Shown here piece after piece: positions 319 through 43,100 of a stretch of 64,000 bases of DNA; positions within the stretch are counted from its first letter, which is position 1, and each line of letters starts with the position of its first letter. The stretch comes from an uncultured bacterium (GTDB taxonomy: Bacteria; Patescibacteriota; Saccharimonadia; UBA4664; SCTI01). Location of the stretch: positions 212,170 through 276,169 of the forward strand of contig CAVRJJ010000001.1 in NCBI GenBank assembly GCA_963721685.1, given 5' to 3'. Both the position numbers and the translations under genes were made by a program. Under the pieces are notes generated by a model, which worked only from the letters and a program-made list of their open reading frames with translations, made no database searches and had not been told where the DNA came from.

Positions 319-348
319 TTTGCATTTATCGTCCTAATATGATATTAT
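319..348 (+). promoter_or_regulatory. sigma70-type promoter with extended -10 (TTTGCA/TTGCAT at 319..325, TGaTATTAT at 340..348) upstream of high-GC ORF 391..909
   Basis: Spacer of 17-18 nt. The TGn extended -10 is directly visible. A GGGAGAG RBS follows, 7 nt before the ATG. Confidence 0.4.
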
Positions 349-390
349 ATCGAAATCCGTTAACCACCCTCGTTCCTTAGGGAGAGTGCC

Positions 391-909
391 ATGCCCAATC
401 GACCCGAACGCCTCTGGATGTTGATGGACGTCACCGAACTGCCGCCTACGGCGGATCTGCCGACCTCGGACGCCGAGACCCGCTTCTTCAAGGGCGACAT
501 CGATGACCTGATGGCCTCTACTGGCTGGCTCACCGAGGATGACCTCATGGTCTTCCTTGAGAGCTACGACCAGCAGACTGGTCTCGACAACGAGACCGTC
601 GCGGCCAAGATGTTCAAGGCGTTCATGCGGTTCAACGACCGCGCAGCGACGCACAGTCCCGGCATGTCGTATGAGTTCCGCGAAGTCGTCGAAGACGAGC
701 GGGTTGCTCGGGGTCTGTCCGCAAGCCCGCGCTACGTGACAACCCGGCTGACCGTCAACACCGAGACCGAGTCGATCGCACGCGCGAGCGTCATCGACCT
801 CAGTCTCCAGCTCTCGGCAGTGGCCTGCTGGGTGCCGGACGGCAAGGCCGAGTACGCCAGGATCCTCCGCGACTGGGCGATCAGCCTCGAAGAGAAGGCT
901 GCCGTCTAG
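391..909 (+). CDS. hypothetical protein; foreign-composition (about 63% GC, very high GC3) ORF, cassette 1
   Basis: 172-aa ORF with a strong third-position G/C bias (ccc aat cga ccc gaa cgc ctc ...), unlike the flanking AT-rich host DNA. It has its own promoter, RBS and terminator hairpins. I recognise no protein family. Confidence 0.6.
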   Translation: MPNRPERLWMLMDVTELPPTADLPTSDAETRFFKGDIDDLMASTGWLTEDDLMVFLESYDQQTGLDNETVAAKMFKAFMRFNDRAATHSPGMSYEFREVVEDERVARGLSASPRYVTTRLTVNTETESIARASVIDLSLQLSAVACWVPDGKAEYARILRDWAISLEEKAAV

Positions 910-923
910 GCACATCACGTTCG

Positions 924-985
924 GACAGGCTCTCAGCATACCGGAGAGCCTGTCACAGCCCCGCGAGGCAGAGCCCTGCGGGGCT
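924..985 (+). terminator. two consecutive GC-rich hairpins (GACAGGCTCTC-loop-GAGAGCCTGTC at 924..954; AGCCCCGC-loop-GCGGGGCT at 957..985) 3' of ORF 391..909
   Basis: Perfect 11-bp and 8-bp inverted repeats are seen directly. No clear U-tract follows, so they may act as a terminator or an RNA-stability element. Confidence 0.4.
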
Positions 986-1144: not shown

Positions 1145-3235
1145 ATGATTCATAATAAATGGTTTCGCATATTGCTCCCATCAATACTTATAATTCTATG
1201 GCTGGGCTTAGGCTCGGCCGGTGGCCCTATCTTTGGCAAAATTTCTGAAGTCTCAACAAATGATCAAGCTGCATTCCTACCTGCTTCTGCAGAATCTACA
1301 CAGGTGCAGAAACTGCAAAGTAAATTCAATAATGGTCAGGCAATACCTGCAATCGTCATATTTGAATTTGATGAGCAGATAAATCCTGCTGAACTCCCAA
1401 CTTTTAATGCGCTTGGTGAAAAACTGAAAGTAGATGGCATTCAGCAAGTTATAGGTCCAATTCCATCAGATGATTTGATGGCGCTTGAATATATTGCCCC
1501 AGTGTCTAATGATAGCGTACTAAAAACAGTCATTAATGATTTACGCCAAGCTGCTGATAATAATTCACCAGACGGCGCAAAGACATTTGTTACAGGACCA
1601 GCAGGCTTAAGTGCGGACTTGTCTAAAGCATTTGAAGGTATCGACGGAATTTTGTTGGTAGTTGCCTTAGGTGCCGTGTTTATAATCTTGCTACTGGTAT
1701 ATCGTTCATTACTATTGCCTTTTCTCGTTTTGATCAATGCAATGCTCGCACTGTGTGCTGCAATCATTACGGTTTATTTGTTAGCCAAATACAACTTGAT
1801 TGAGCTAAATGGTCAAAGTCAGGGTATATTATCGATTCTCGTAATTGGTGCCGCTACTGATTACTCACTACTGCTTGTGTCCCGCTATAAGGAAGCGTTG
1901 AGCCGCACTAATGATAAATGGGAAACTATCGCATTTGGTATAAAAAGCTCGTTTGAACCGATTCTAGCATCAGCCGCAACAGTTGTTCTAGCACTACTTT
2001 GTCTATTGTTCTCGGATTTAAATTCAAACAAAAGTCTCGGCCCGATTGCTGCCACAGGGATAGCATTCTCGCTATTGGCAACACTCACATTCTTACCTGC
2101 TCTTCTTGCTACTTTTGGCAAAACAGCATTTTGGCCGAGTAAAATTGCCCAACCGGAGAATAAAAAGGCGGTAGCAATCAAGACAGGCCGTGAAGAACTT
2201 TCGGGTATTTGGAACAGGGTTGGAGGTTTAATAACAACTAATGCTCGTACTACATGGATCGTAATAACCGTACTACTGACGATGGCATCGCTCGGCCTCT
2301 TACAGCTAAGGGCTAGCGGAGTACCCCAGTCAGAATTAATTTTGTCACAATCAAACGCAGCCGATGGCCAAAAAGCAATCGCCCGTCACTTCGATGCCGG
2401 ATCTGGCGCCCCGGTAATTATTGCTAGCTCGCAAGCGTCTCAAAAGGGAGTAGTTAATATTCTTGAAACAAATGATAAATTAGCGATGCTCACGGCCTAC
2501 AGCGATCGTGGTCAAACTAATAACCTCAATGAGGCAAAAGTGATCGAAGGCAAAGTATTACTGAGTGCTACATTAAAAGAAGACCCGTACTCGGAGCAGG
2601 CCAGGTCGACTATTTTGTCGCTAAGAGATGAATTGAACCAAGTCGCTAGTGCTCAAGTTGGAGGTACTACTGCTATTGCAGCCGACACGAGCATTACCGC
2701 ACAACGTGATCTGAAATTAGTCGTACCATTAGTACTGCTCGTCATCTTTATAGTTTTAGCACTGCTGCTTCGGGCATTGCTTGCGCCTCTTATTTTGATT
2801 ATGACTGTAGTACTGAGTTTCGCCGCAACATTGGGCGTTTCTGCACTCATATTCAATAATATTTTAGAATTTCCGGGCGCTGACGCAACGGTACCTCTTT
2901 TCGGTTTTGTATTCTTGGTTGCATTAGGTGTAGATTACAATATTTTCTTAGTATCTCGTATAAGAGAGGAGACTTTTAAGTACGGTACACGTGCAGCGAC
3001 GCTCCATAGCTTAGGCAAAACTGGTGGAGTCATAACATCTGCAGGAGTAGTACTGGCCGCGACATTTGCCGCTCTTGGGATTATCCCGATTCTCTTTCTG
3101 GCGCAAATAGCATTTATAGTAGCCTTTGGCGTATTACTAGATACGGTTATCGTTCGGTCATTATTAGTACCGGCCTTATTTACAGATTTGGGCTCAAAAG
3201 TATGGTGGCCATCAATAATTTCTAAAGAAAAATAA
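1145..3235 (+). CDS. MMPL-family (RND superfamily) membrane transporter
   Basis: 696 aa, two blocks of about 6 TM helices separated by soluble domains, a typical MMPL layout. The gene is about 40% GC, lower than the rest of the window. Confidence 0.8.
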   Translation: MIHNKWFRILLPSILIILWLGLGSAGGPIFGKISEVSTNDQAAFLPASAESTQVQKLQSKFNNGQAIPAIVIFEFDEQINPAELPTFNALGEKLKVDGIQQVIGPIPSDDLMALEYIAPVSNDSVLKTVINDLRQAADNNSPDGAKTFVTGPAGLSADLSKAFEGIDGILLVVALGAVFIILLLVYRSLLLPFLVLINAMLALCAAIITVYLLAKYNLIELNGQSQGILSILVIGAATDYSLLLVSRYKEALSRTNDKWETIAFGIKSSFEPILASAATVVLALLCLLFSDLNSNKSLGPIAATGIAFSLLATLTFLPALLATFGKTAFWPSKIAQPENKKAVAIKTGREELSGIWNRVGGLITTNARTTWIVITVLLTMASLGLLQLRASGVPQSELILSQSNAADGQKAIARHFDAGSGAPVIIASSQASQKGVVNILETNDKLAMLTAYSDRGQTNNLNEAKVIEGKVLLSATLKEDPYSEQARSTILSLRDELNQVASAQVGGTTAIAADTSITAQRDLKLVVPLVLLVIFIVLALLLRALLAPLILIMTVVLSFAATLGVSALIFNNILEFPGADATVPLFGFVFLVALGVDYNIFLVSRIREETFKYGTRAATLHSLGKTGGVITSAGVVLAATFAALGIIPILFLAQIAFIVAFGVLLDTVIVRSLLVPALFTDLGSKVWWPSIISKEK

Positions 3236-3311: not shown

Positions 3312-3340
3312 TTGACAGACCAATTGGCTTATGGTATTAT
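3312..3340 (+). promoter_or_regulatory. consensus sigma70-type promoter TTGACA(3312..3317)-N17-TGgTATTAT(3332..3340) upstream of high-GC ORF 3478..3864
   Basis: Perfect -35, 17-nt spacer and extended -10. The -10 overlaps the motif TATTATATATCGATCCG, which resembles TATTATATCGAAATCCG at 343..359. Confidence 0.45.
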
Positions 3341-3477
3341 ATATCGATCCGCCGCATGCAGTACTTATGTTGCTTGCGATAGCGGGGCTCATATTGAAGG
3401 TTAATGATATTGAGTGGTAGCAGTACTTCGGAAGGACCGCGGCGGAAACCGCAAACAACAACCGAAGGGAGTCCACC

Positions 3478-3864
3478 ATGGACACCAAGACCACGAAGAT
3501 CAGCAGCATCACAGGCGGGCGCAGTGCGACCGAAGAGACCACGAACATCACCGGGGTCATCATGGAGCACAGCGTTTCGGACGTGACGTTCAAGGACGTC
3601 ATCGGCCGGAGCATGCCCGACTGGCTAAACAAGCACGGCAAGGTGACGGTGACCGTTCGCGAGAACGGCGACCACAACCTCGTTGTGCTTGAGCTGGAAC
3701 TGACAGACATCAGGCTGTTGACGGAAGACGGCTGGAACAACTCCTTCAGCTATCGCGCGATTGTGCGCGGTGGCCCAAGGGACCGTATCGGCCAAACCGT
3801 CGACGGCAAGATCATCATGCAGTCAGCCGGAGGAACGTCCTTCGGCAACCTGCACGCGGCCTAG
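3478..3864 (+). CDS. hypothetical protein; foreign-composition high-GC/high-GC3 ORF, cassette 2
   Basis: 128-aa ORF with almost every codon ending in G/C, and AGGGAG-like RBS (GAAGGGAG) 8 nt upstream. No family recognised. Confidence 0.6.
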   Translation: MDTKTTKISSITGGRSATEETTNITGVIMEHSVSDVTFKDVIGRSMPDWLNKHGKVTVTVRENGDHNLVVLELELTDIRLLTEDGWNNSFSYRAIVRGGPRDRIGQTVDGKIIMQSAGGTSFGNLHAA

Positions 3865-3913
3865 CCGCAACCGCCCCCGGTTAGGGGATGAGCTCCGCAC
3901 CTACAAGATGAAG

Positions 3914-3948
3914 GAGACGTCCCCGGCAACGGGGGCGTCTCTCTTTCT
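3914..3948 (+). terminator. rho-independent-like terminator: GAGACGTCCCCG-GCAA-CGGGGGCGTCTC followed by TCTTTCT
   Basis: 12-bp stem with one mismatch and a GNRA-like loop, followed by a T-rich tract. Confidence 0.5.
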
Positions 3949-3950
3949 AC

Positions 3951-3992
3951 ACATAAATTGTTCGGATAACGTCCCATAACCCCAGCCATATA
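3951..3992. repeat. conserved 42-bp junction motif (copy 2)
   Basis: See 1006..1047. Confidence 0.8.
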
Positions 3993-4131
3993 GTTTTTGC
4001 TCAATATACATATTAAAATTTTCTTTCCCTCGCCTAAGGCATAACCGCTATTTTCTGTTGTTATGCTCGCTCCGGTTGGCTAAGCATATGCACTATACTG
4101 AACAAGTATCAAAATTTAAGGGAGAGTATAT

Positions 4132-5070: not shown

Positions 5071-5092
5071 CCACCCAAAACTTAAATAAAAG

Positions 5093-5118
5093 AAAAAGCC
5101 GGCATTGGTCGGCTTTTT
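5093..5118 (+). terminator. rho-independent terminator AAAAAGCCG-gcattggt-CGGCTTTTT
   Basis: Perfect 9-bp stem including an A-tract and U-tract, so it may act in both directions. Confidence 0.7.
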
Positions 5119-5188
5119 CGCTGTCAATATAATTATCATTTAAACTAGAACGCCTCGCCGGAGCGAGGGCTCTAGCGAGACGTGGGGA

Positions 5189-5677
5189 TCAGATGACCCC
5201 GACGAGTTCTTCGAGTTCATCAAGGGAGAGGGAGAGGCGGCCGATGAAGTCGTCCCCCTCAACGATGTACTGCGCGCAGAGGCACCTCAGCCAATTGCTG
5301 TGGCGAGTATTACCTCTCTTGAGCTCATCAATCCACTGCTCGGCCCTGGCGGCTTCGCGCCAAAGCCAGAACTCCCTGATCTCATGGTGGTAGGAACCGA
5401 TCTCCTCGGGCCTAATGCCGTAACCGAGCTTTCTGGCGTCAGAAAGACGCGAGAGCTCGGGATGGATTGTCCGCCCGTAAAGGACGAAGGCGTGTGGTTC
5501 CAGGTTGCCCTGACGGCACTCGGCCAACGCCTTCCTGGCTTCAGCCTTGGCCTCCTGCATCAGCTCAGTGTCTTCGATCTTGGGAACCTCGTAGGTGAGG
5601 GCCACCGAAGCCCAGCCCGCCCCAGTCCTGGCAAGCTTTTTAAGCGCGCGAAATCGGGGGCGATTTTGCAATCCCAT
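5189..5677 (-). CDS. hypothetical protein; high-GC/high-GC3 ORF
   Basis: 162 aa. The minus-strand frame has about 75% G/C at third positions, while the overlapping plus-strand ORFs lack this bias. A CAGGAGCG RBS precedes the ATG. Confidence 0.5.
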   Translation of the reverse strand: MGLQNRPRFRALKKLARTGAGWASVALTYEVPKIEDTELMQEAKAEARKALAECRQGNLEPHAFVLYGRTIHPELSRLSDARKLGYGIRPEEIGSYHHEIREFWLWREAARAEQWIDELKRGNTRHSNWLRCLCAQYIVEGDDFIGRLSLSLDELEELVGVI

Positions 5678-5802
5678 AGGTGTACGCTCCTGGTAGACGA
5701 TTGATGATCACTACAGAGTTTATTTATTAAAGCATAAAGTGAACAATAAGTCCAGTTTGTACATGATAGCAAGTATCAGCGTCAAGGCCTATACTCACTT
5801 AT

Positions 5803-22039: not shown

Positions 22040-22192
22040 CGCCATTTGGACGCGGCGGTGTATACTTCTAAGTACCATCGTTGAGGTGGTAGGTAGACGA
22101 CAGAAATGCCCCTACCGCAAAAAGGAGCCCGTTAAACGGCTTCCTTTTTGTTTTTACGATGTGCTTGAAATATTCACGGATTAGTTCATAGA

Positions 22193-22222
22193 TTGACAAG
22201 TACCATAATAATATGTTATTAT
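22193..22222 (+). promoter_or_regulatory. sigma70-type promoter TTGACA(22193..22198)-N18-TGtTATTAT(22214..22222) upstream of high-GC ORF 22320..22748
   Basis: Same -35/extended -10 pattern as at 319..348 and 3312..3340. Confidence 0.4.
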
Positions 22223-22319
22223 CTCACAAACCAAAAAGGAGCAAAAAACAGTTGTAAACTGCTTATGCCTCAAGTAGTGTAAGGGCAAGGACCTACAACG
22301 ATGGGGAGTTCTTTACCAC

Positions 22320-22748
22320 ATGCCAGTACCAGCGACATCGCCGCTACGGCTCGTCACCGCGAGCCATCCTGCCGTACCAGCCGAACGGCCGCGTCTCAGA
22401 GCTGTACCTGATGCAACCGATGTGACGGCTTTCGATCTCGAGGAGCTCGACCTTGAAGGGGCGGAAGTCGCCTTCGCCGAGATCTACCGCGCATACCTGC
22501 TGTACTTCGGTCCCACCGACGCCAGCCAGCGTCTCGAAGACCTCCGCTTGGAGTTCAGCCTCGGGTTCACGCCCCTGGACGATCTTCTCGAGCAGAACCG
22601 GGCCCTCATCGACGGCCTGAGTCAGGGCATGGGCAACCAGCTCACGGCAGGCTCCAAGTGCAATCCGCTCATGACGCCGGGATCCACATTCCTCAGCGCA
22701 CCGCGGAGCACGGGACGTCGCGACGAGCTCGAGCCGCTCATCGCCTGA
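22320..22748 (+). CDS. hypothetical protein; foreign-composition high-GC ORF (cassette 3)
   Basis: 142 aa, acidic and Leu/Asp/Glu-rich, with strong GC3 bias. No family recognised. Confidence 0.5.
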   Translation: MPVPATSPLRLVTASHPAVPAERPRLRAVPDATDVTAFDLEELDLEGAEVAFAEIYRAYLLYFGPTDASQRLEDLRLEFSLGFTPLDDLLEQNRALIDGLSQGMGNQLTAGSKCNPLMTPGSTFLSAPRSTGRRDELEPLIA

Positions 22749-22764
22749 CGGCACTTCCTGGTTC

Positions 22765-22857
22765 GCCGCCTCCTAATTGCAATCGGATTCGTTCCGATCA
22801 TTAGGAGGCGGCGCAACCGCGGCACCTCTCTTAGCAGCTACGAAAAGGAGGGGTGCC
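22765..22857. terminator. long perfect hairpin GCCGCCTCCTAAT-(22 nt)-ATTAGGAGGCGGC (22765..22812) plus a second imperfect hairpin (22821..22857) between convergent genes
   Basis: 13-bp perfect stem seen directly. Likely a bidirectional terminator for ORF 22320 (+) and cfa (-). Confidence 0.5.
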
Positions 22858-22873
22858 TTCCTCCTGGAATCAT

Positions 22874-24055
22874 TTAAGCTTTATACAAGAATTCCCGGGT
22901 GAGCGGCAAGTCGTTATTAATCCCTTTAGTAAAAACCATTTGTGACAAGTCATTAATGCCATGGCGGAAGGACGCGCTGGAACCTGCTAAGTATAGCCGC
23001 CACATTCGAATAAAGCGCTCATCATACATTTTAGTAATTTTCGGCACATGCTTTTCAAAGCGACGTGACCACTCGTCCAAGGTCATAGCGTAATGAATTC
23101 GCAAATTTTCATAATCGGTAAGGCGGAAATTATAGTTTGGCAATAACGACAGGATCTCCCGGGTGCTGGGGATGTAGCCGCCGGGGAAAATGTACTTATC
23201 AATCCAGGGGGAGGTGCCAACTTCGGTTTGCTGGGTAATGGAATGCAGCGCCGAAACACCGCCCGGCTTTAATAGCCCGTCAACTACGTTAAAATAGTGC
23301 CGGTGATTACCGCGCCCAACATGCTCCAAGATTCCCACGCTCACAACTCGGTCATATTGCTTGGTGGCGGGCAAAAGATCCTGATAATTAATATTTTTAA
23401 AGGTTGCCAGGTCGGCGACGCCTTCTTTTTTAGCAAGTTCGGTCGCGAACTCATACTGTTCGCGGCTTAGCGTCACGCCTAAGCCCTTGGCACCGTAGTG
23501 CTTAGCCGCCCGCACCACCAAATGCCCCCAACCGCACCCAAGATCAACAAACTCATGGCCTGGCTGCAACTGAAGCTTACGCAGCACGTGGTCGATCTTT
23601 TGGCGTTGGGCTTGCTCTAAGCTATCTGTGGGGGTGCGGAAATAAGCACAGGTATAGGTCATAGTGTCATCAAGCCACAGCTTATAAAAATCATTCCCCA
23701 GATCGTAGTGGCTTTGAATTAATTTCTTTTGGTTTTGTCGGACATTCTTATTGGGACGGTACACGCGCAACTTGCCTAAGAATGAGTCTACCAGCGTTTG
23801 GTTCTGGTTAATAATTTTTAGCAAGTCGTCCAATCTACCGGTGCGAAATTCAATCCGCCCGTCCATATAGGCCTCTCCAAAGCCTAAATCAGATTTACGC
23901 ACGAGCTCACCGGCGACCTTGGGGTCTTTCAGCAACAAGCTAACAGTTGGCTTGCCGCGACCATAGGTTTGGCGCTCTTCACCCCAATAATCTATCTCAA
24001 GGGCGCCCGTTGTAAAGCTGCCCAAGACCTTGCCCAGTAGCGTTTTTGCTATCAT
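22874..24055 (-). CDS. cfa: cyclopropane-fatty-acyl-phospholipid synthase family methyltransferase
   Basis: SAM-binding VDLGCGWG, LGFGEAYMDG near the N-terminus and YFRTPTDSLEQAQ. The start is set at the internal ATG (24055) to give a canonical length and avoid antisense overlap with the next gene. The longest ORF starts at 24196. Confidence 0.8.
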   Translation of the reverse strand: MIAKTLLGKVLGSFTTGALEIDYWGEERQTYGRGKPTVSLLLKDPKVAGELVRKSDLGFGEAYMDGRIEFRTGRLDDLLKIINQNQTLVDSFLGKLRVYRPNKNVRQNQKKLIQSHYDLGNDFYKLWLDDTMTYTCAYFRTPTDSLEQAQRQKIDHVLRKLQLQPGHEFVDLGCGWGHLVVRAAKHYGAKGLGVTLSREQYEFATELAKKEGVADLATFKNINYQDLLPATKQYDRVVSVGILEHVGRGNHRHYFNVVDGLLKPGGVSALHSITQQTEVGTSPWIDKYIFPGGYIPSTREILSLLPNYNFRLTDYENLRIHYAMTLDEWSRRFEKHVPKITKMYDERFIRMWRLYLAGSSASFRHGINDLSQMVFTKGINNDLPLTREFLYKA

Positions 24056-36126: not shown

Positions 36127-39100
36127 TTACTTATTCCAGAAAAAGCGTTTAGATCCGCCGCAGAACGCCGCCCCATGGCGCAAACGTTTTTCTAAAGTGG
36201 GTACCGTACAGCGGGTAATTTCTGGCCAGGCATTATAAGTAGTGAGTAAAGTTCCGCTGGATTTTACCACGCGCAAGCAGTAGGTACTTTCATAGGTTGC
36301 CTTTGATAGGTCTAAGTCAAAATCCCAGCGCCCATACTCACCTGCGGCAATCGCCTGTGTATTCGTAAAATAGTTGTTGGTAATGTAATTCTGCGGTCGT
36401 ATCGTTGCGCCCCCTTGAGTTGGGTCACTGCCGCTTGAAACCAAACCACCGTAATTATCGGCAGGCTGGCCCCCCCAATTAACCGGTGGGCTCATGGTCA
36501 TGACGCGGTTGCCGGTGCCTGTGGCGGCAACCGCCACGAACACTCCGTTGTTGTAAGTGACGGAGTACCAATCGTTATCCTCGACGCTGGGGCGGATGGT
36601 CCAGGTAATGCCGTCGGGGCTGGTCATCACGCGGTTGTCGGAGCCGGTGTAGCTGACCGCCACAAACAACCCGTTGCCGTGAGTGACGGAGTACCAATCG
36701 TTATCCGCCGCGCTGGTGCGGGGGGTCCAGGTAATGCCGTTAGGGGAGGTCATGACACGGTTGCCGGTACCGGAGGCGGCAACTGCCACAAATAACCCGT
36801 TGCCGTGAGTGACAGATTGCCAAATATTATTAGCTGCGCTGGTGCGGATGGTCCAGGTAATGCCGTCGGGGGAAGTCATGACCCGGTTGCCGGAGCCGGT
36901 GTAGCTGACCGCCACAAATAACCCGTTGCCGTAAGTGACGGAGTACCAATCGTTATCCGCCGCGCTGGTGCGGGGGGTCCAGGTGGTGCCGTCGGGGGAA
37001 GTCATCACCCGGTTGCCGGTACCAGAACTTGCGACCGCTACAAACAAGCCATTGCCGTAGGTGACGGAGTACCAGAGGTTATCCGCGGCGCTGGTGCGGA
37101 TCGTCCAGCTAATGCCGTCGGGGGAAGTCATCACCCGGTTGCCGGTACCGGTGGCGGCAACTGCCACAAATAACCCGTTGCCGTAAGTGACGGAGTACCA
37201 ATCGTTATCCGCCGCGCTGGTGCGTGGGGTCCAAGTGATGCCGTCGAGAGAGGTCATGACGCGGTTACCGATACCAGAACTTGCGACCGCTACAAACAGG
37301 CCATTGCCGTAAGTGACGGAGTTCCAGGAATTGTCCGCGGCGCTGGTGCGGCTTACCCAACCGGCAATACCAACATCATGATAGGTCTCACTATTAGAGC
37401 ACACGCTACCGCTGCGAGCTGCATAATGCAATGCAAAATTACTATCACCAGGGTCGGCATCTCCTGTGGTAGCACCGAGATTCATGCGCAGCCGTAACGA
37501 ATCGCTACTTGCCGCAGTCGTAACGGCGTCTTGTGATGACAGCGCTTCACCCACAGCGGCGTCGACCCCCGGAGCAGTCATAACTCGGTTGCCGGTGCCG
37601 GATGCTGCCACTGCTACAAACAAGCCGTTGTTATAAGTTACGGCCTGCCATAAGTTGTCTGCCGCGGAGGTTTGGGAGGTCCAGGTAATACCATCAGGTG
37701 AAGTCATCACCCGGTTGCCGGTCCCTGATTGCGCTACCGCTACAAACAACCCGTTGCCGTAAGTGATGGACTGCCAGGATTGATCAGCACTGGTGCGGGG
37801 GGTCCAGGTGGTACCATCGGGGCTGGTCATCACCCGGTTACCGATACCAGAACTTGCGACCGCTACAAACAACCCGTTGCCGTATGTAACGGAATTCCAA
37901 GTATTATCCGCGGCGCTGGTACGGGAGGTCCAGGCAGTGCCGTTGAGGGAGGTCATCACCCGGTTGCCGGTGCCGGTTTCCGCCACCGCTACAAACAACC
38001 CGTTGCCATAAGTGACGGATTTCCAATCAATGTTAGCGGCGGCAGTGCGGGGTGTCCAAGTGATGCCGTCGGGGGAGGTCATCACCCGGTCATTAATGGT
38101 TCCGGTAACACTTGGACTTACCGCTACATACAGACCATTTCCATAAGCGATACCGCTCCATGCATTGTCAGCGGCACTGGTGCGGGGGTCCAGGTGATCC
38201 CGTCGGGAGAGGTCATAACCCGGTTGCCGGTCCCGGTAGAACCCACCGCTACAAACAACCCGTTGCCGTAAGTAACAGAGTTCCAATAATTATCGGCGGC
38301 ACTGGTGCGGGGGGTCCAGGTAATGCCGTTAGGAGAGGTCATAACCCGGTTGCCGGTCCCGGTAGAGCTTACCGCTACAAACAGATCTTTGCCATATGTT
38401 ACGGATCGCCAATCATTATTTGCCGCTGAAGTGCGGGAGATCCAGTTACTGGCGGTTGACTGCGTGGTAGTGCCCGAGGTCATTACTCGATTACCGGTAC
38501 CGCTATTTGAGACTGCCACAAACAAACCATTTCCGTAAACGACACCAAACCAAGCATTGTCTGCCGCGGAGGTTCGGGAGGTCCAGGTGATACCATCAGG
38601 TGAAGTCATGACCCGGTTTCCGGTGCCGCTGTTTCCTACAGATACAAATAGACCGCTAGCGAAAGTAACTGACCGCCACAAGTTGTCTGCTGAGCTGGTC
38701 CTTGATGTCCAGGTAATACCATCAGGTGAAGTCATGACGCGATTGCCGGTACCAGTGGTGGCCACTGCCACGAACAAACCGTTACCGAAGGTAATTGAAG
38801 TCCAGTTATTGTCTGCCGCGGAAGTTCGGGATGTCCAGGTGATGCCGTCGGGGGAGGTCATGACGCGGTCACCGGTACCGGAAGCTGCCACTGCCACGAA
38901 CAAGCCATTGTCGTAGGCGACTGATTGCCAACTATTATTAGCTGCACTAGTGCGGATAGTCCATGTGATACCATCAGGTGAAGTCATGACCCGGTTGCCG
39001 GTACCAGAGGTGGCTACTGCCACAAACAAGCCGTTGCCGTAAGTAACGGAGTTCCAGTTGTTATCCGCCGCGGAAGTTCGGGGAGTCCAGGTGGTACCAT

Positions 39101-40141
39101 CAGGTGAAGTCATGACCCGGTTGCCGGTACCAGAGGTGGCTACTGCCACAAACAAGCCGTTGCCGTAAGTAACGGAGTTCCAGTTGTTATCCGCCGCGGA
39201 AGTTCGGGAGTCCAGGTGGTACCATCAGGTGAAGTCATGACCCGGTTGCCGGTACCAGAGGTGGCTACTGCCACAAACAAGCCGTTGCCGTAAGTAACGG
39301 AGTTCCAGTTGTTATCCGCCGCGGGGGTATTGCGTGAAATCCAGTTAACCCCAGCAGTTCTTTCCTCTTGACCAAACCAACGATGTGAAGCTTGTGTATA
39401 ATCGGCGTTTTGAGAATATGTCACTGCCGCATAAACTGAGGCAATTCGAACATCATCATCTTGGGCAGATGGCCCCCCAGAACCCAGCCGATTGCGGGTT
39501 ATTTGAACTTGCATGCTGTCAAGATCGCTTTGAGTCCAGGTGCCGTTGAAGGTTACAGCCGAACACCACGCCCAGGTGTTGAAGGCTGGTGTACAGGTAC
39601 CTGCAGTCTGTAACGTTCCATTTATACGTAAATTTATACTTAAAGAATCTAGTGTACTACCATTGGCATTGGTAGCACTTTGGGCATGCACATTTATGCT
39701 GACCTGAGACACTGATAGTACATTAGAGGCATTGGTTAAACCGAATTCCTCCACCTCACCTCCGGATCCCGCGGTACCTGTGCCTATATAATCGGCCGTA
39801 TTGGCAGTTGCTCCTTCATCCACATGATCACAATGAGGTCCGCCAGAACACGTAGAATCGTTAGTGCCAACCACATTGGGCCAATCAGACGTAATGTCAA
39901 AGCTTGGAACAATATTGCTAGTGGCGGCGTAAACGGGAGTTTGGAACATCACAATTGTTCCCGCCAGCAAAGACAAAATAAATACAATTGCGGGTACTTT
40001 ACTCCGAGAGAGCTTGGCTAACTTGAAGCTTGGTGGTGTTCGCTTTCGTGTTGACCTTAGCCGCCTCAATATTGGCAATAGCACATTGCGTTGCTTTTTC
40101 CTTTGATGCTTTGGGGCACTGTTTTGGATGGGAATTATCAT
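36127..40141 (-). CDS. giant BNR/Asp-box repeat surface protein (about 1338 aa if corrected), currently split into three ORFs by two 1-nt frameshifts in G-runs (about 38185 and about 39207)
   Basis: At least 30 tandem 40-aa units of VMTSPDG(I/T)TWTPRTSAADN.W.SVTYGNGLFVAVA..GTGNR containing the S-x-D-x-G-x-T-W Asp-box. An N-terminal signal anchor is present. Confidence 0.7.
38970..39330. repeat. three near-identical 120-bp tandem copies (one 40-aa BNR unit each); the middle copy differs only by one G fewer in a G-run
   Basis: Identity at the DNA level, seen by direct comparison of 38971..39090, 39091..39209 and 39210..39325. Confidence 0.8.
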
Positions 40142-43100
40142 TAGTTTGTGTACTGGTAACTTATTTCACCAATTCGGACCTTGTTGCTGGACTTCGAAAT
40201 TACCCGCACAGTGATGGTGATTAGGTCGTTGGCGGCATAGGTACAACCACTGAGCGTTACGCTCTGCTCGGTCCAAGTAGCCGCCGTGCCAGGCAGAACC
40301 GATACCGAGCTAGCGCATGCGGTCCCGGCGCCATCCTTAACGGTTACCAGAATATCGTTATTTGCCGTTGAGGTTGAATCGCCATAGGCCCAAATTTTAA
40401 AGGTACCAAATCCCGACGCGTACTCGCTGGGAATCTGATTTCTTACAATAACGTCGTAATCATTGAGAGTCCCGGTGCTATTGAGCCATTCATAATAGTT
40501 ATGAATATTGGTGCCATCGTAATTGGAGGTAATAGAGCCGCTATTATTACTGCCATCGGCTGAAAGTATGCCTCCCGGATATTCAGGGACAATATAGTTC
40601 TTACGCGTCGAGCCGCCTCCTCCGCCGCCACATGATCCAAAGGCGAGGGTACCGGGCGTGGCACTATTTTTCAAACACTCGTTAGCGGCACCCGCGGTAG
40701 TGGGTAAAACTAAATTGTAGCTTGTCGAGGTCGTACCTACGCTTATCGTGACGGTGTTGGCGTTAGCTGAGTTATAAACCACCAGCTTGCCAGTTAGGGC
40801 AGATGCCTTGCCAAAAAGCACTTGGTTTGCCGAGGTATCTACGCCCAGCACCGTATTACCTGCTGTGTTTTGAACCTGAAGTGCAGCCGCTGAATTAGCC
40901 TGGAACTTTACTAAGCCGCTTGAAGACACGTCACCTGCTATGTGAGCGCTCCCACCAACATTTAGGCCACCCTGGATGCTCACACCGCCACCTATGGCAG
41001 CGTTGCCGATGGTAGTCAAAGTGCCAGATTCTATGCCGCCTGCTTCCAGCTGTTGCACGTAAGCTCCGCCGATATCGTAGATAGTCATATTGCTTGAATT
41101 GTAGTTTGCCACGTAAGCGTAGCGGCCTTGGACGTAAACTGAAGTTGGTGCGTCGCCAGTGGCAACCGTTCCAGTTAATACTGGGCTGGACGGGTTTGAG
41201 ACATCAAAGATGTTCATGGAATCCCCAAGGTAGTTTGCCACATAGGCGAACCGATCCTGGACGTAAACTGAAGTTGGTGCGTCGCCAGTGGCAACCGTTC
41301 CAGTTAATACTGGGCTGGACGGGTTTGAGACATCAAAGATGTTCATGGAATCCCCTACGTAGTTAACCACATAAGCATAGCGGCCCTGAACGTAAACTGA
41401 GTATGGATTACTGTCTGTGGCAATAGTGCCGATCTGTGTTGGACTGGCCGGGTTGGAAACGTCATATATATCTAGGTCATCCCAAAAATAGTTCGCAACA
41501 TAGGCATAGCGGCCTTGGACGAAGATTGAGTACCCCCCACTGGTGCTTGCGAATGTTCCAGCAAGAACTGGACTGGACGGGTTAGCTATGTCGTAGATAG
41601 TCATGGAGTCGGAATTATAGTTTGCTACATAGGCATAGCGGCCTTGTACGTACACTGAGGCTGGTGCGTCGCCCGTCGAGACTGTTCCGGCCAATACAGG
41701 CGTGGACGGGTTTGAGACGTCATAGATGGTCATGGAGTCTCCAAGGTAGTTTGCCACATAAGCATAGCGGCCCTGGACGTACACTGAACCTGGTCCGTCG
41801 CCAGTGGCAATAGTCCCGACTTGTGTCGGACTAGAGGGGTTTGAAACATCAAAGATTGTCATTGAATCCGCGCCGTAGTTTGCAACATATGAATAACGTC
41901 CCTGGACGTAAACTGAGTATGGGTTAGTTCCAGTGGAAATCGTCCCTGTAGTGCTAGAAGGAATTTGCCCGGAGACATATAGTTGTCCGGCGGAAGTACC
42001 AATAGCTCCTACCTGGACCCGCATATTGGTTGTGTCTACATTGAAAACATTGGTTCCGCTAGTGGCGTTCTGTATCTTAAAGGCAGAGGTGGAATCAGTT
42101 TGGTTGCGTAAGGTGGTCGCCCCCCCATCAGCGATCTTAAACACATCTTGGGCGGTAGCGGTGGTATCTCGGATTGTAAGTAAGTTGCCACTACCGGCGC
42201 TTTCAATCCTGAGTCCTTCAACCGCTCCGGTAGCAAGCTGTTCAACCTTAAGGACAGCTCCCGAGGAGACCCCGCCGCTTGCGGGGTTTTGGAAGATCAA
42301 GTTACCGTCAATGGCTGTTAAGGCGAGGGTGGCATCGGCACTGTCAACATCCGCGGCATAAGCCTGCTGAAGAGTGGAACCTCCTCCAGCACCACACCCA
42401 AGATCAGTGGTATTACACAAGGTCTTGTACGTCGGGGTTCCCGCAACATCTTCCACGACCATGAACTTCCCGGTTTGGGAGTTGTAAATGAGGCCGCCGT
42501 TGACCGCGGTGGGCAAGTTGGCAGTATTTGAAGAATCAACTACGAATAAGGTGGTGTCAGTGCCGGTGGAGGCGGTGGCGTTACCGACGATAAGCCGGTT
42601 ATTGGTGGTGTCGGCGGTAAAGAGGGTGTCGGCATTACTGCGTTGGATTTTAAAGGCAGTGATTGAGTTAGCAGTATTTTCAAACAATACATCACCTGTG
42701 CCGCTCATGGTGAGGATGGGCCTGGTAAACGTAAAGGTAGTACCGGCGGCAAGGTTAGTTGTGAATGACGCCGACACAGTCAGCGTGGTGTCATTTGTTA
42801 TGACGGCTACGCGGCGAGCTTCGCCGCCGGCAAAAATGGTGTCTCCTACCCTTAGCTGAGTAGTAAACACAGTACTTACGTTACCGGTAACAGTGGTGCC
42901 AGAACTACTAATTGTGCCTGTACCGGCCACGGCTGAGTTCTGAACCTGGAAACGGTTCTGGACATCAGCGAGCAAGCCAATACCAACGCCGCCTGTAGTG
43001 GTACTGGCGCTCAAAACATTCGCCCCTGTAGATGTTTGAACCTGGAAGGCGGAGGTTGAGTTGGTAGTGGTTCTATGCGTGGTGGCACCACCATTACCTA

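Follow-up and report, generated by a model that had tools for sequence, protein, structure and literature searches.

Phage morons, as described by Juhala and Hendrix, are genes defined by a promoter of their own, a terminator of their own and a deviant GC content (PMC3594210), and they are the closest known analogue of the locus analysed here. That locus, called cassette 3, lies at about positions 22190-22860 of a stretch of 64,000 nucleotides (nt) from an uncultured bacterium of the Saccharimonadia (contig CAVRJJ010000001.1, assembly GCA_963721685.1); "the window" below means this whole stretch. It is laid out as a near-consensus promoter, an AT-rich leader, a GC-rich open reading frame (ORF) of 142 amino acids (aa) and two strong 3' hairpins, and it is one of four islets of this design in the window (cassettes 1 to 4). 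We give about an even chance to the reading in which cassette 3 is an ORFan islet that was acquired from a high-GC donor not long ago and now stands as an autonomous unit of promoter, leader, ORF and hairpin. The observation is statistically unusual, while a single-gene, horizontally acquired transcription unit unrelated to known genes, as cassette 3 would be, is already known as a kind.

Like a moron, cassette 3 has one ORF, a sigma-70-type promoter of its own (at the level of sequence) and a 3' hairpin of its own; its GC content deviates from that of its flanks, it sits between unrelated genes, and its product would be small. It differs from morons in the property that defines them, location in a phage genome: cassette 3 is chromosomal, among metabolic and respiratory housekeeping neighbours, with no significant PHROG or phage matches, and its promoter is of host composition and, on the evidence of cassette 1 given below, was probably not part of the transferred piece. 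Classical ORFan islets resemble it in being small, intergenic, lineage-restricted or unique, and atypical in GC content, in GC content at third codon positions (GC3) and in amino-acid usage, and cassette 3 is indeed atypical in nucleotide, codon and amino-acid composition. Bacterial ORFans are, however, usually richer in AT than the genome around them, whereas the present islets are richer in GC; near-consensus promoters set them apart as well, and no tRNA gene, integrase or insertion sequence (IS) adjoins cassette 3 (the only tRNA gene of the window is at 49.5 kb). Integron cassettes are likewise short single-ORF units, several to a genome, each followed by an inverted repeat, and in the single comparison available, that of cassette 1, the homology boundary falls near the start codon as in such cassettes. 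Unlike integron cassettes, the islets are scattered and each has a promoter of its own; no recombinase domain was found in the genes scanned (with Pfam: the neighbours of cassette 3 and 20 further ORFs, a part of the ORFs of the window), nor was an IntI integrase or an attI site found; and hairpin 1 of cassette 3 is a perfect stem (CGCCGCCTCCTAAT/ATTAGGAGGCGGCG) that lacks the R''/L''/L'/R' layout and has neither GTTRRRY nor RYYYAAC at its ends. The likeness of the cassette 3 protein to anti-CRISPR or Ard/Ocr-like anti-defence proteins, which are also small acidic orphans with strong promoters and rapid sequence turnover, is general only, as there is no mobile-element context, no adjacent aca-like regulator with a helix-turn-helix (HTH) and no similarity in sequence or fold to a known family. 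No description of such islets in Patescibacteria was found in the literature.

Table 1. Features of cassette 3 and of the other islets, in coordinates of the window
Feature	Position	Strand	Details
-35 hexamer TTGACA	22193-22198	+	6/6 consensus; sequence reading and promoter scans
Extended -10, TRTG type, TATGtTATTAT	22212-22222	+	TG 22214-22215; hexamer TATTAT 22217-22222, 5/6
5' leader, ~90 nt, 37% GC (inferred)	22230-22319	+	predicted transcription start near 22229
GC-rich island, 61% GC	22273-22881	.	against 50.6% in the window and 37% in promoter and leader
ORF, 142 aa, 64.3% GC	22320-22748	+	ORF list and composition
Antisense ORF, 136 aa	22344-22754	-	same codon phase; less likely coding strand
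Hairpin 1, extendable to ~18 bp	22760-22818	+	perfect 14-bp stem, CGCCGCCTCCTAAT 22764-22777 pairing with ATTAGGAGGCGGCG 22800-22813
Hairpin 2	22821-22858	+	GGCACCTCTCTT...AAGGAGGGGTGCC, then UUCCUCCU
Cassette 1	320-985	+	TTGCAT-N17-TGaTATTAT 320-348; ORF 391-909, 172 aa, GC3 0.84; hairpins 924-954, 957-985
Cassette 2	3312-3943	+	TTGACA-N17-TGgTATTAT 3312-3340; ORF 3478-3864, 128 aa, GC3 0.85
Cassette 4	5147-5771	-	TGcTATCAT extended -10 5771-5763; ORF 5677-5189, 162 aa, GC3 0.72

The promoter is the most striking element of cassette 3 (Table 1). Its boxes are 18 nt apart, and in a promoter scan of the 15-30 kb region the site ranks first, matching 11 of 12 consensus positions and carrying the TG. 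Over both strands of all 64 kb, 13 pairs of -35 and -10 boxes match at no fewer than 10 of 12 positions, and only two sites combine 11 of 12 with the TG, those of cassette 3 and of cassette 2 (3312); the two best sigma-70 consensus matches of the 64 kb thus precede two of the islet ORFs. TTGACA followed after 14-20 nt by TATTAT occurs twice in the window, against 0.04 expected, and TGnTATTAT occurs four times, three times as the promoter of cassettes 1, 2 and 3 and once inside a gene. Some ordinary host genes also have a TG-extended -10 (for example at 1057, 7322 and 52341), which shows the promoter type to be the host's own; the peculiarity of the cassette promoters is their closeness to consensus and not their type. 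The TRTG or '-16' form of the extended -10 is familiar from Gram-positive promoters.

The leader has no stable structure (fold z = +1.3) and offers a Shine-Dalgarno sequence, GGGGAG at 22303-22308, at the long spacing of 11 nt ahead of the ATG at 22320. Two small reading frames accompany it, a minimal start-stop ORF (AAGGAG-N10-TTG-TAA, 22236-22257) and an upstream ORF of 36 codons (22301-22411) that has AAGGA nine nt before its ATG and runs, in another frame, into the beginning of the 142-aa ORF. Translation of the 142-aa ORF could be affected by either of the two. Further upstream, between the SRPBCC gene and cassette 3, the segment 22038-22155 holds a promoter-like TTGACG...TATACT and then three hairpins (fold z = -4.0), the last being a U-tract terminator of canonical form (22118-22150). 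The segment, which Rfam does not match, is either a small RNA about 90 nt long or an elaborate region for terminating the SRPBCC transcript.

In composition the 142-aa ORF stands well apart from its surroundings, as the preliminary description of this locus, made from the letters and the ORF list, had held when it called the gene foreign. Its GC content is 64%, against about 48-52% in the flanking genes, and its GC by codon position is 0.71/0.49/0.73; GC3 exceeds 0.70 in exactly 4 of the 58 ORFs of the window and is around 0.54 in the remaining genes. The predicted protein is acidic (isoelectric point 4.5) and has a single Lys against 11 Arg, so that the ratio K/(K+R) is 0.08, compared with 0.53 +/- 0.12 in host proteins; the share of Phe, Tyr, Met, Ile, Asn and Lys (FYMINK) is 0.13 against 0.26 +/- 0.035, and that of Gly, Ala, Arg and Pro (GARP) 0.35 against 0.27 +/- 0.03, so that cassette 3 is the extreme case in amino-acid usage too. 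By eye, no signal peptide and no transmembrane segment were seen. A period-3 GC signal (chi-square 22.4, p = 1.4e-5) indicates DNA that codes for protein in the phase of this ORF, or did so until recently. When the GC-rich segment was simulated with a Markov-1 model, 1.6% of the runs gave an ORF of at least 142 aa (the corresponding share is 0.15-3.5% for the other three islets), and each of the four islets is filled by one ORF. The structure model proposed in the preliminary description could be obtained with single-sequence AlphaFold2 (predicted local distance difference test score, pLDDT, 56) and places three helices at residues 45-110, but it identifies no fold. A binding or inhibitor-type accessory role would be a guess from the size, acidity and helical core of the product.

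Within cassette 3 only the 3' hairpins are exceptional in folding: the two together reach -63.7 kcal/mol, against -39.7 +/- 3.8 for shuffled sequences (z = -6.3). No perfect local inverted repeat in the window is longer than the stem of hairpin 1, which encloses a further 6-bp stem (ATCGGA/TCCGAT, 22782-22787 / 22793-22798). Hairpin 2 ends 15 nt from the stop codon of the convergent CFA synthase gene and may, given this distance, serve both genes. Neither is followed by a proper U-tract, which nearby host terminators (22118-22150 and ~5090-5115) do have. GC-rich hairpins without a U-tract are typical of actinobacterial terminators.

The same layout recurs at 0.4, 3.5 and 5.2 kb, cassette 3 being at 22.3 kb (Table 1). 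Cassette 2 has a leader of about 130 nt and a terminator hairpin at ~3913-3943; cassette 4, which the preliminary list did not contain, has about 80 nt of leader and, past its stop codon, a hairpin rich in GC. The preliminary description has largely held up at this level. The TTGACA hexamer, the 18-nt spacer, TGtTATTAT and the ORF are all present, as is the perfect hairpin, whose stem is 14 bp long and not 13 bp; the design does recur, three of the four TGnTATTAT sites standing directly upstream of GC-rich orphan ORFs; and promoters this close to consensus are not typical of every gene here, so that the refuting condition named in that description does not hold. An alignment of promoters and leaders, suggested there as a check, confirmed shared -35 and -10 boxes and nothing further: the promoter regions of cassettes 1 to 3 align only around these boxes, and the leaders (about 40, 130 and 90 nt in cassettes 1, 2 and 3) differ in length and in sequence. 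The hairpins of the four islets have no sequence in common. Other Saccharimonadales loci, about 110 kb in all, yielded a single comparable ORF with outlying GC3, which makes the islets a feature of the present genome and not of the whole order.

Two observations concern the distribution of such pieces. Between cassettes 1 and 2 lies an MMPL-type transporter gene (1145-3235) that is an outlier of the opposite kind, with a GC3 of 0.35 against ~0.54; with this low-GC gene among the cassettes, the first 6 kb of the window are a patchwork of high-GC, low-GC and host-like pieces and may be a variable region. In another Saccharimonadales metagenome-assembled genome (MAG), a patch of about 330 bp (contig L002, 4943-5266) reaches 65% GC and encodes on its minus strand a small hydrophobic ORF right after an extended -10, TGTGgTATAGT; it is a possible further example of the islet layout.

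Which part of an islet is foreign can be judged from cassette 1, the only one for which a homologue was found, on a Logan contig of 1.15 kb (L081) at 77% amino-acid identity. The two sequences are 84% identical in nucleotides from the ATG across the ORF and into the first 3' hairpin, whereas the DNA upstream of the ATG is unrelated and the neighbouring gene is different. Homology that begins at the ATG below unrelated DNA implies that the promoter was not delivered with the cassette 1 gene. The differences fall on codon positions 1/2/3 as 25/19/45, a pattern that would be expected of a coding sequence under moderate constraint. Adjoining the homologue on L081 (3-554, minus strand) is a 184-aa ORF with an IS630-type winged-helix HTH (HTH_29, HTH_32, HTH_33), which hints at insertion sequences as carriers of this gene family in another genome. 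By analogy, and in view of the jump in GC at the start of its ORF, the promoter and leader of cassette 3 are most likely local as well.

From these observations we infer the transcription, translation and direction of transfer of cassette 3 as follows. A protein-coding piece of about 560 bp, from a high-GC donor for which actinobacterial hosts or their mobile elements are candidates, would have been inserted between two convergent genes, one for an SRPBCC/polyketide-cyclase-like protein and one for CFA synthase. The ORF and its hairpins would be the foreign part, while promoter and leader, being of host intergenic composition, would have been recruited or have evolved in place. A host-type SigA promoter would start transcription near 22229, the unstructured AT-rich leader of about 90 nt would supply the Shine-Dalgarno sequence, and translation from the ATG would yield an acidic, Lys-poor, largely helical cytoplasmic protein; the two very stable U-less hairpins would end or stabilise the transcript before the convergent gene. 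Hairpins without a U-tract fit an origin from an actinobacterial host of the bacterium, as does the natural competence of cultivated Saccharibacteria, which live as epibionts on Actinobacteria (PMC10633639); neither proves such an origin.

The searches for relatives bear directly on the donor. For the 142-aa protein, a word-indexed search of 5.8 billion clustered proteins matched only the protein itself, and a full HMMER search of 1.8 billion representatives returned the query plus one hit at 27% identity, to 16 stretches of a 5020-aa protein, which was judged spurious; the antisense 136-aa ORF had zero matches. For all four cassette proteins, which are singletons at 90% identity, Pfam, PHROGs, NCBIfam and PADLOC gave nothing above threshold (best PHROG E = 0.028, cassette 2), and comparison of the four cassettes with phage and plasmid records (blastn, tblastn) and with viral contigs gave nothing, a hit of cassette 4 over 45 residues at 38% identity being treated as noise. 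A sequence search of the PDB with the 142-aa protein gave E values of 0.1 or worse, and a Foldseek search of the PDB with its low-confidence model 1.9 or worse. With relatives completely absent no donor can be named for cassette 3, and a well-sampled donor becomes less credible.

Several points weigh against recent acquisition of a functional gene. Cassette 3 has neither donor nor homologue, although a recent gene from a sampled actinobacterium should have relatives. No genome without the insert was found, and the insertion is read from composition alone; an empty site sought through the CFA synthase gene led only to distant Saccharimonadales (at most 63% identity) without synteny, and a metagenome scan found no relatives of the SRPBCC neighbour. 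The antisense frame is open too, and GC3 is hardly above GC1 (0.73 against 0.71). The structure model is of low confidence and resembles no known fold, with the first 40 residues apparently disordered, and the Shine-Dalgarno spacing is poor. Finally, the local origin of the promoter is argued from one comparison, and that of cassette 1, not of cassette 3.

Most of these points can be turned into the main rival explanation, which we consider unlikely: a dead foreign coding fragment, such as host DNA taken up by competence, was inserted illegitimately, and the 142-aa ORF is non-functional. The frame would be open because stop codons are rare in GC-rich DNA in the original phase, and the promoter would be idle or its transcript without function. 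This agrees with the lack of homologues on either strand, with two strands open in the same phase, with a GC1 about equal to GC3, with the poor Shine-Dalgarno spacing, with the predicted disorder of the 40 N-terminal residues in a low-confidence model and with an amino-acid composition exactly like that of translated GC-rich DNA. A piece of a real gene should nevertheless match its family in one of the phased frames, and neither frame does. The ORF also fills the segment, beginning shortly after a Shine-Dalgarno sequence and stopping right ahead of the hairpins (p ~0.016), the four islets share one layout with a single ORF each, cassette 1 evolves as coding sequence, and it would be strange for the best promoter matches in 64 kb to be there by coincidence.

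With the antisense frame open and GC3 near GC1, the coding strand of cassette 3 is not settled, and a gene on the minus strand (22754-22344), with the plus-strand promoter giving an antisense transcript, has to be weighed; we regard it as very unlikely. The minus-strand frame is in phase and co-directional behind the CFA synthase gene, and a codon model built from the other three cassettes scores it positively, at 15.2 bits. The plus frame scores 24.2 bits in the same model, which in leave-one-out trials chose the annotated frame in cassettes 1, 2 and 4 alike. GC3 exceeds GC1 in the plus frame only, the minus-strand frame having the reverse; that frame would start at a GTG with AGGA only one nt away, two strong hairpins would separate it from the CFA synthase gene, its AlphaFold2 model has a pLDDT of 40 with no residue at 70 or above, and it has no homologues. 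The promoter and hairpins of cassette 3 are oriented for the plus strand. Four indicators thus point, weakly, to the plus strand as the coding one, while the long Shine-Dalgarno spacing and the apparent disorder of the first 40 residues count against it.

That cassette 3 is an RNA unit, in which a strong promoter yields a stable transcript regulating the convergent CFA synthase gene by interference or antisense pairing and the ORF is incidental, appears highly improbable. The convergent layout, with hairpin 2 so near the CFA synthase stop codon, would suit it, and read-through is plausible past hairpins that lack U-tracts. The body has no significant structure, however (fold z = -1.2 on the plus and -0.5 on the minus strand), and Rfam matches nothing in cassette 3 either at the gathering threshold or at E < 0.2; on these results and the fold of the leader, a structured RNA or riboswitch in leader or body was rejected. 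Cassettes 1, 2 and 4 are not convergent with a neighbour in this way, and coding periodicity and foreign composition would be left unexplained.

The preliminary description had seen in the recurring design a sign of selection for strong expression or of a dedicated delivery mechanism, and a capture system, integron-like or based on reverse transcription, could in principle place high-GC ORFs behind resident promoters. Four islets of one layout within 64 kb, three of them with TGnTATTAT, the homology boundary of cassette 1 at the start codon and the 3' hairpins on each ORF would all be explained by it. The idea has found no support, and we likewise attach only a very small probability to it. 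Among the genes scanned there is no integrase, transposase or reverse transcriptase; no direct or inverted repeats above chance flank cassette 3, and no att site, target duplication or terminal repeats were found at it. The hairpins differ between cassettes and share no core site, attC-like or other, the leaders differ in length and sequence, and other Saccharimonadales loci yield the single outlier mentioned above. An integron, IS or miniature inverted-repeat transposable element (MITE) was rejected for the same lack of core sites, terminal repeats and target duplications.

A shared end element was also considered, because a 49-nt repeat follows cassettes 1 and 2 (1003-1051 and 3948-3996, the copies 90% identical). 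It is absent from cassette 3, and its core, TTGTTCGGATAACGTCCCATA[GA]CC..A[GA]CCA, is found in three unrelated metagenome contigs (L083 1915-1946, L084 23-55, L085 2084-2127) in ordinary intergenic DNA, about 50-140 nt upstream of a gene or promoter-like site, with no GC-rich ORF adjoining it in any of them. As a cassette end it was therefore rejected, and it is not cassette-specific. The motif, which has no Rfam match, looks like a regulatory or intergenic motif of the downstream genes, perhaps a site bound by a regulator or a small element conserved in Saccharimonadales. On L083 (1290-1840, minus strand), about 530 nt of GC-rich DNA, in which no ORF exceeds 72 aa, lie between a promoter-like site and a U-tract terminator; this segment, with no Rfam match and a fold z of -0.7, may be a decayed islet of the cassette kind or an unknown RNA.

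The surroundings of cassette 3 are those of a Saccharimonadales chromosome. The flanks include a cytochrome o oxidase operon, a UbiA-type transferase, an alpha-amylase family gene, the SRPBCC (Polyketide_cyc2) and CFA synthase (CMAS) genes, a DHFR-like gene, an archaeal-type PEP carboxylase (PEPcase_2) and a glutamate dehydrogenase, and the CFA synthase finds its best matches, at 47-63% identity, in Saccharimonadales / Saccharibacteria MAGs of a species-level genome collection. The 20 further ORFs scanned with Pfam are likewise ordinary genes of a chromosome. Elsewhere in the window, tandem arrays of 126-nt and 129-nt units (36400-39300 and 40900-42000) encode repeats of 42-43 aa, 60-85% identical, inside minus-strand ORFs of 719, 343 and 1728 aa, presumably repetitive surface proteins. 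Engineered DNA was considered on account of HindIII, EcoRI and SmaI sites within 25 nt (22877-22900), as in a polylinker, and rejected: the sites lie in the conserved CFA synthase C-terminus LPLTREFLYKA, which distant homologues share, so that their clustering is a coincidence, and none of the cassette ORFs is a known marker gene. An assembly or binning artefact, with actinobacterial reads chimerically joined into a Saccharimonadales contig, is scarcely credible in spite of the metagenome-assembled source and the sharp change in composition, since host sequence lies on both sides inside a 405-kb contig, a separate Logan assembly of the same run (a 10.3-kb contig from ERR12037361) has the same gene order, which argues against a chimeric join, the boundaries coincide with promoter, Shine-Dalgarno sequence, start, stop and hairpins, and four islands have the layout in common.

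At present, then, cassette 3 stands as an ORFan islet that is well documented and has a strong-looking promoter, and not as evidence for a new mechanism; its use is that of a catalogue entry and of a target for transcriptomics. Its interest is moderate, which it owes to the presence of four such units together in a host-dependent, reduced genome. A wider scenario, to which we allow only a slim chance, is that the lineage repeatedly takes up high-GC coding pieces, plausibly from its actinobacterial hosts or from mobile elements of these, cut back to the start codon or its vicinity but still with the U-less hairpin of the donor, and fixes them behind strong resident promoters; the products would be highly expressed, fast-evolving host-interaction or anti-defence proteins, and the route, an uncharacterised one without an integron-type recombinase, might for example be competence-fed illegitimate recombination at active promoters or the copying of leaderless donor transcripts. 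If expressed, the four islets would be the clearest candidates that the window offers for accessory proteins imported recently into an ultrasmall bacterium that depends on a host, and their high GC content points towards the Actinobacteria, on which cultivated Saccharibacteria live. If true, this would make it possible to study in a concrete case how genes pass from host to epibiont and how foreign genes are wired into the transcription of a reduced genome.

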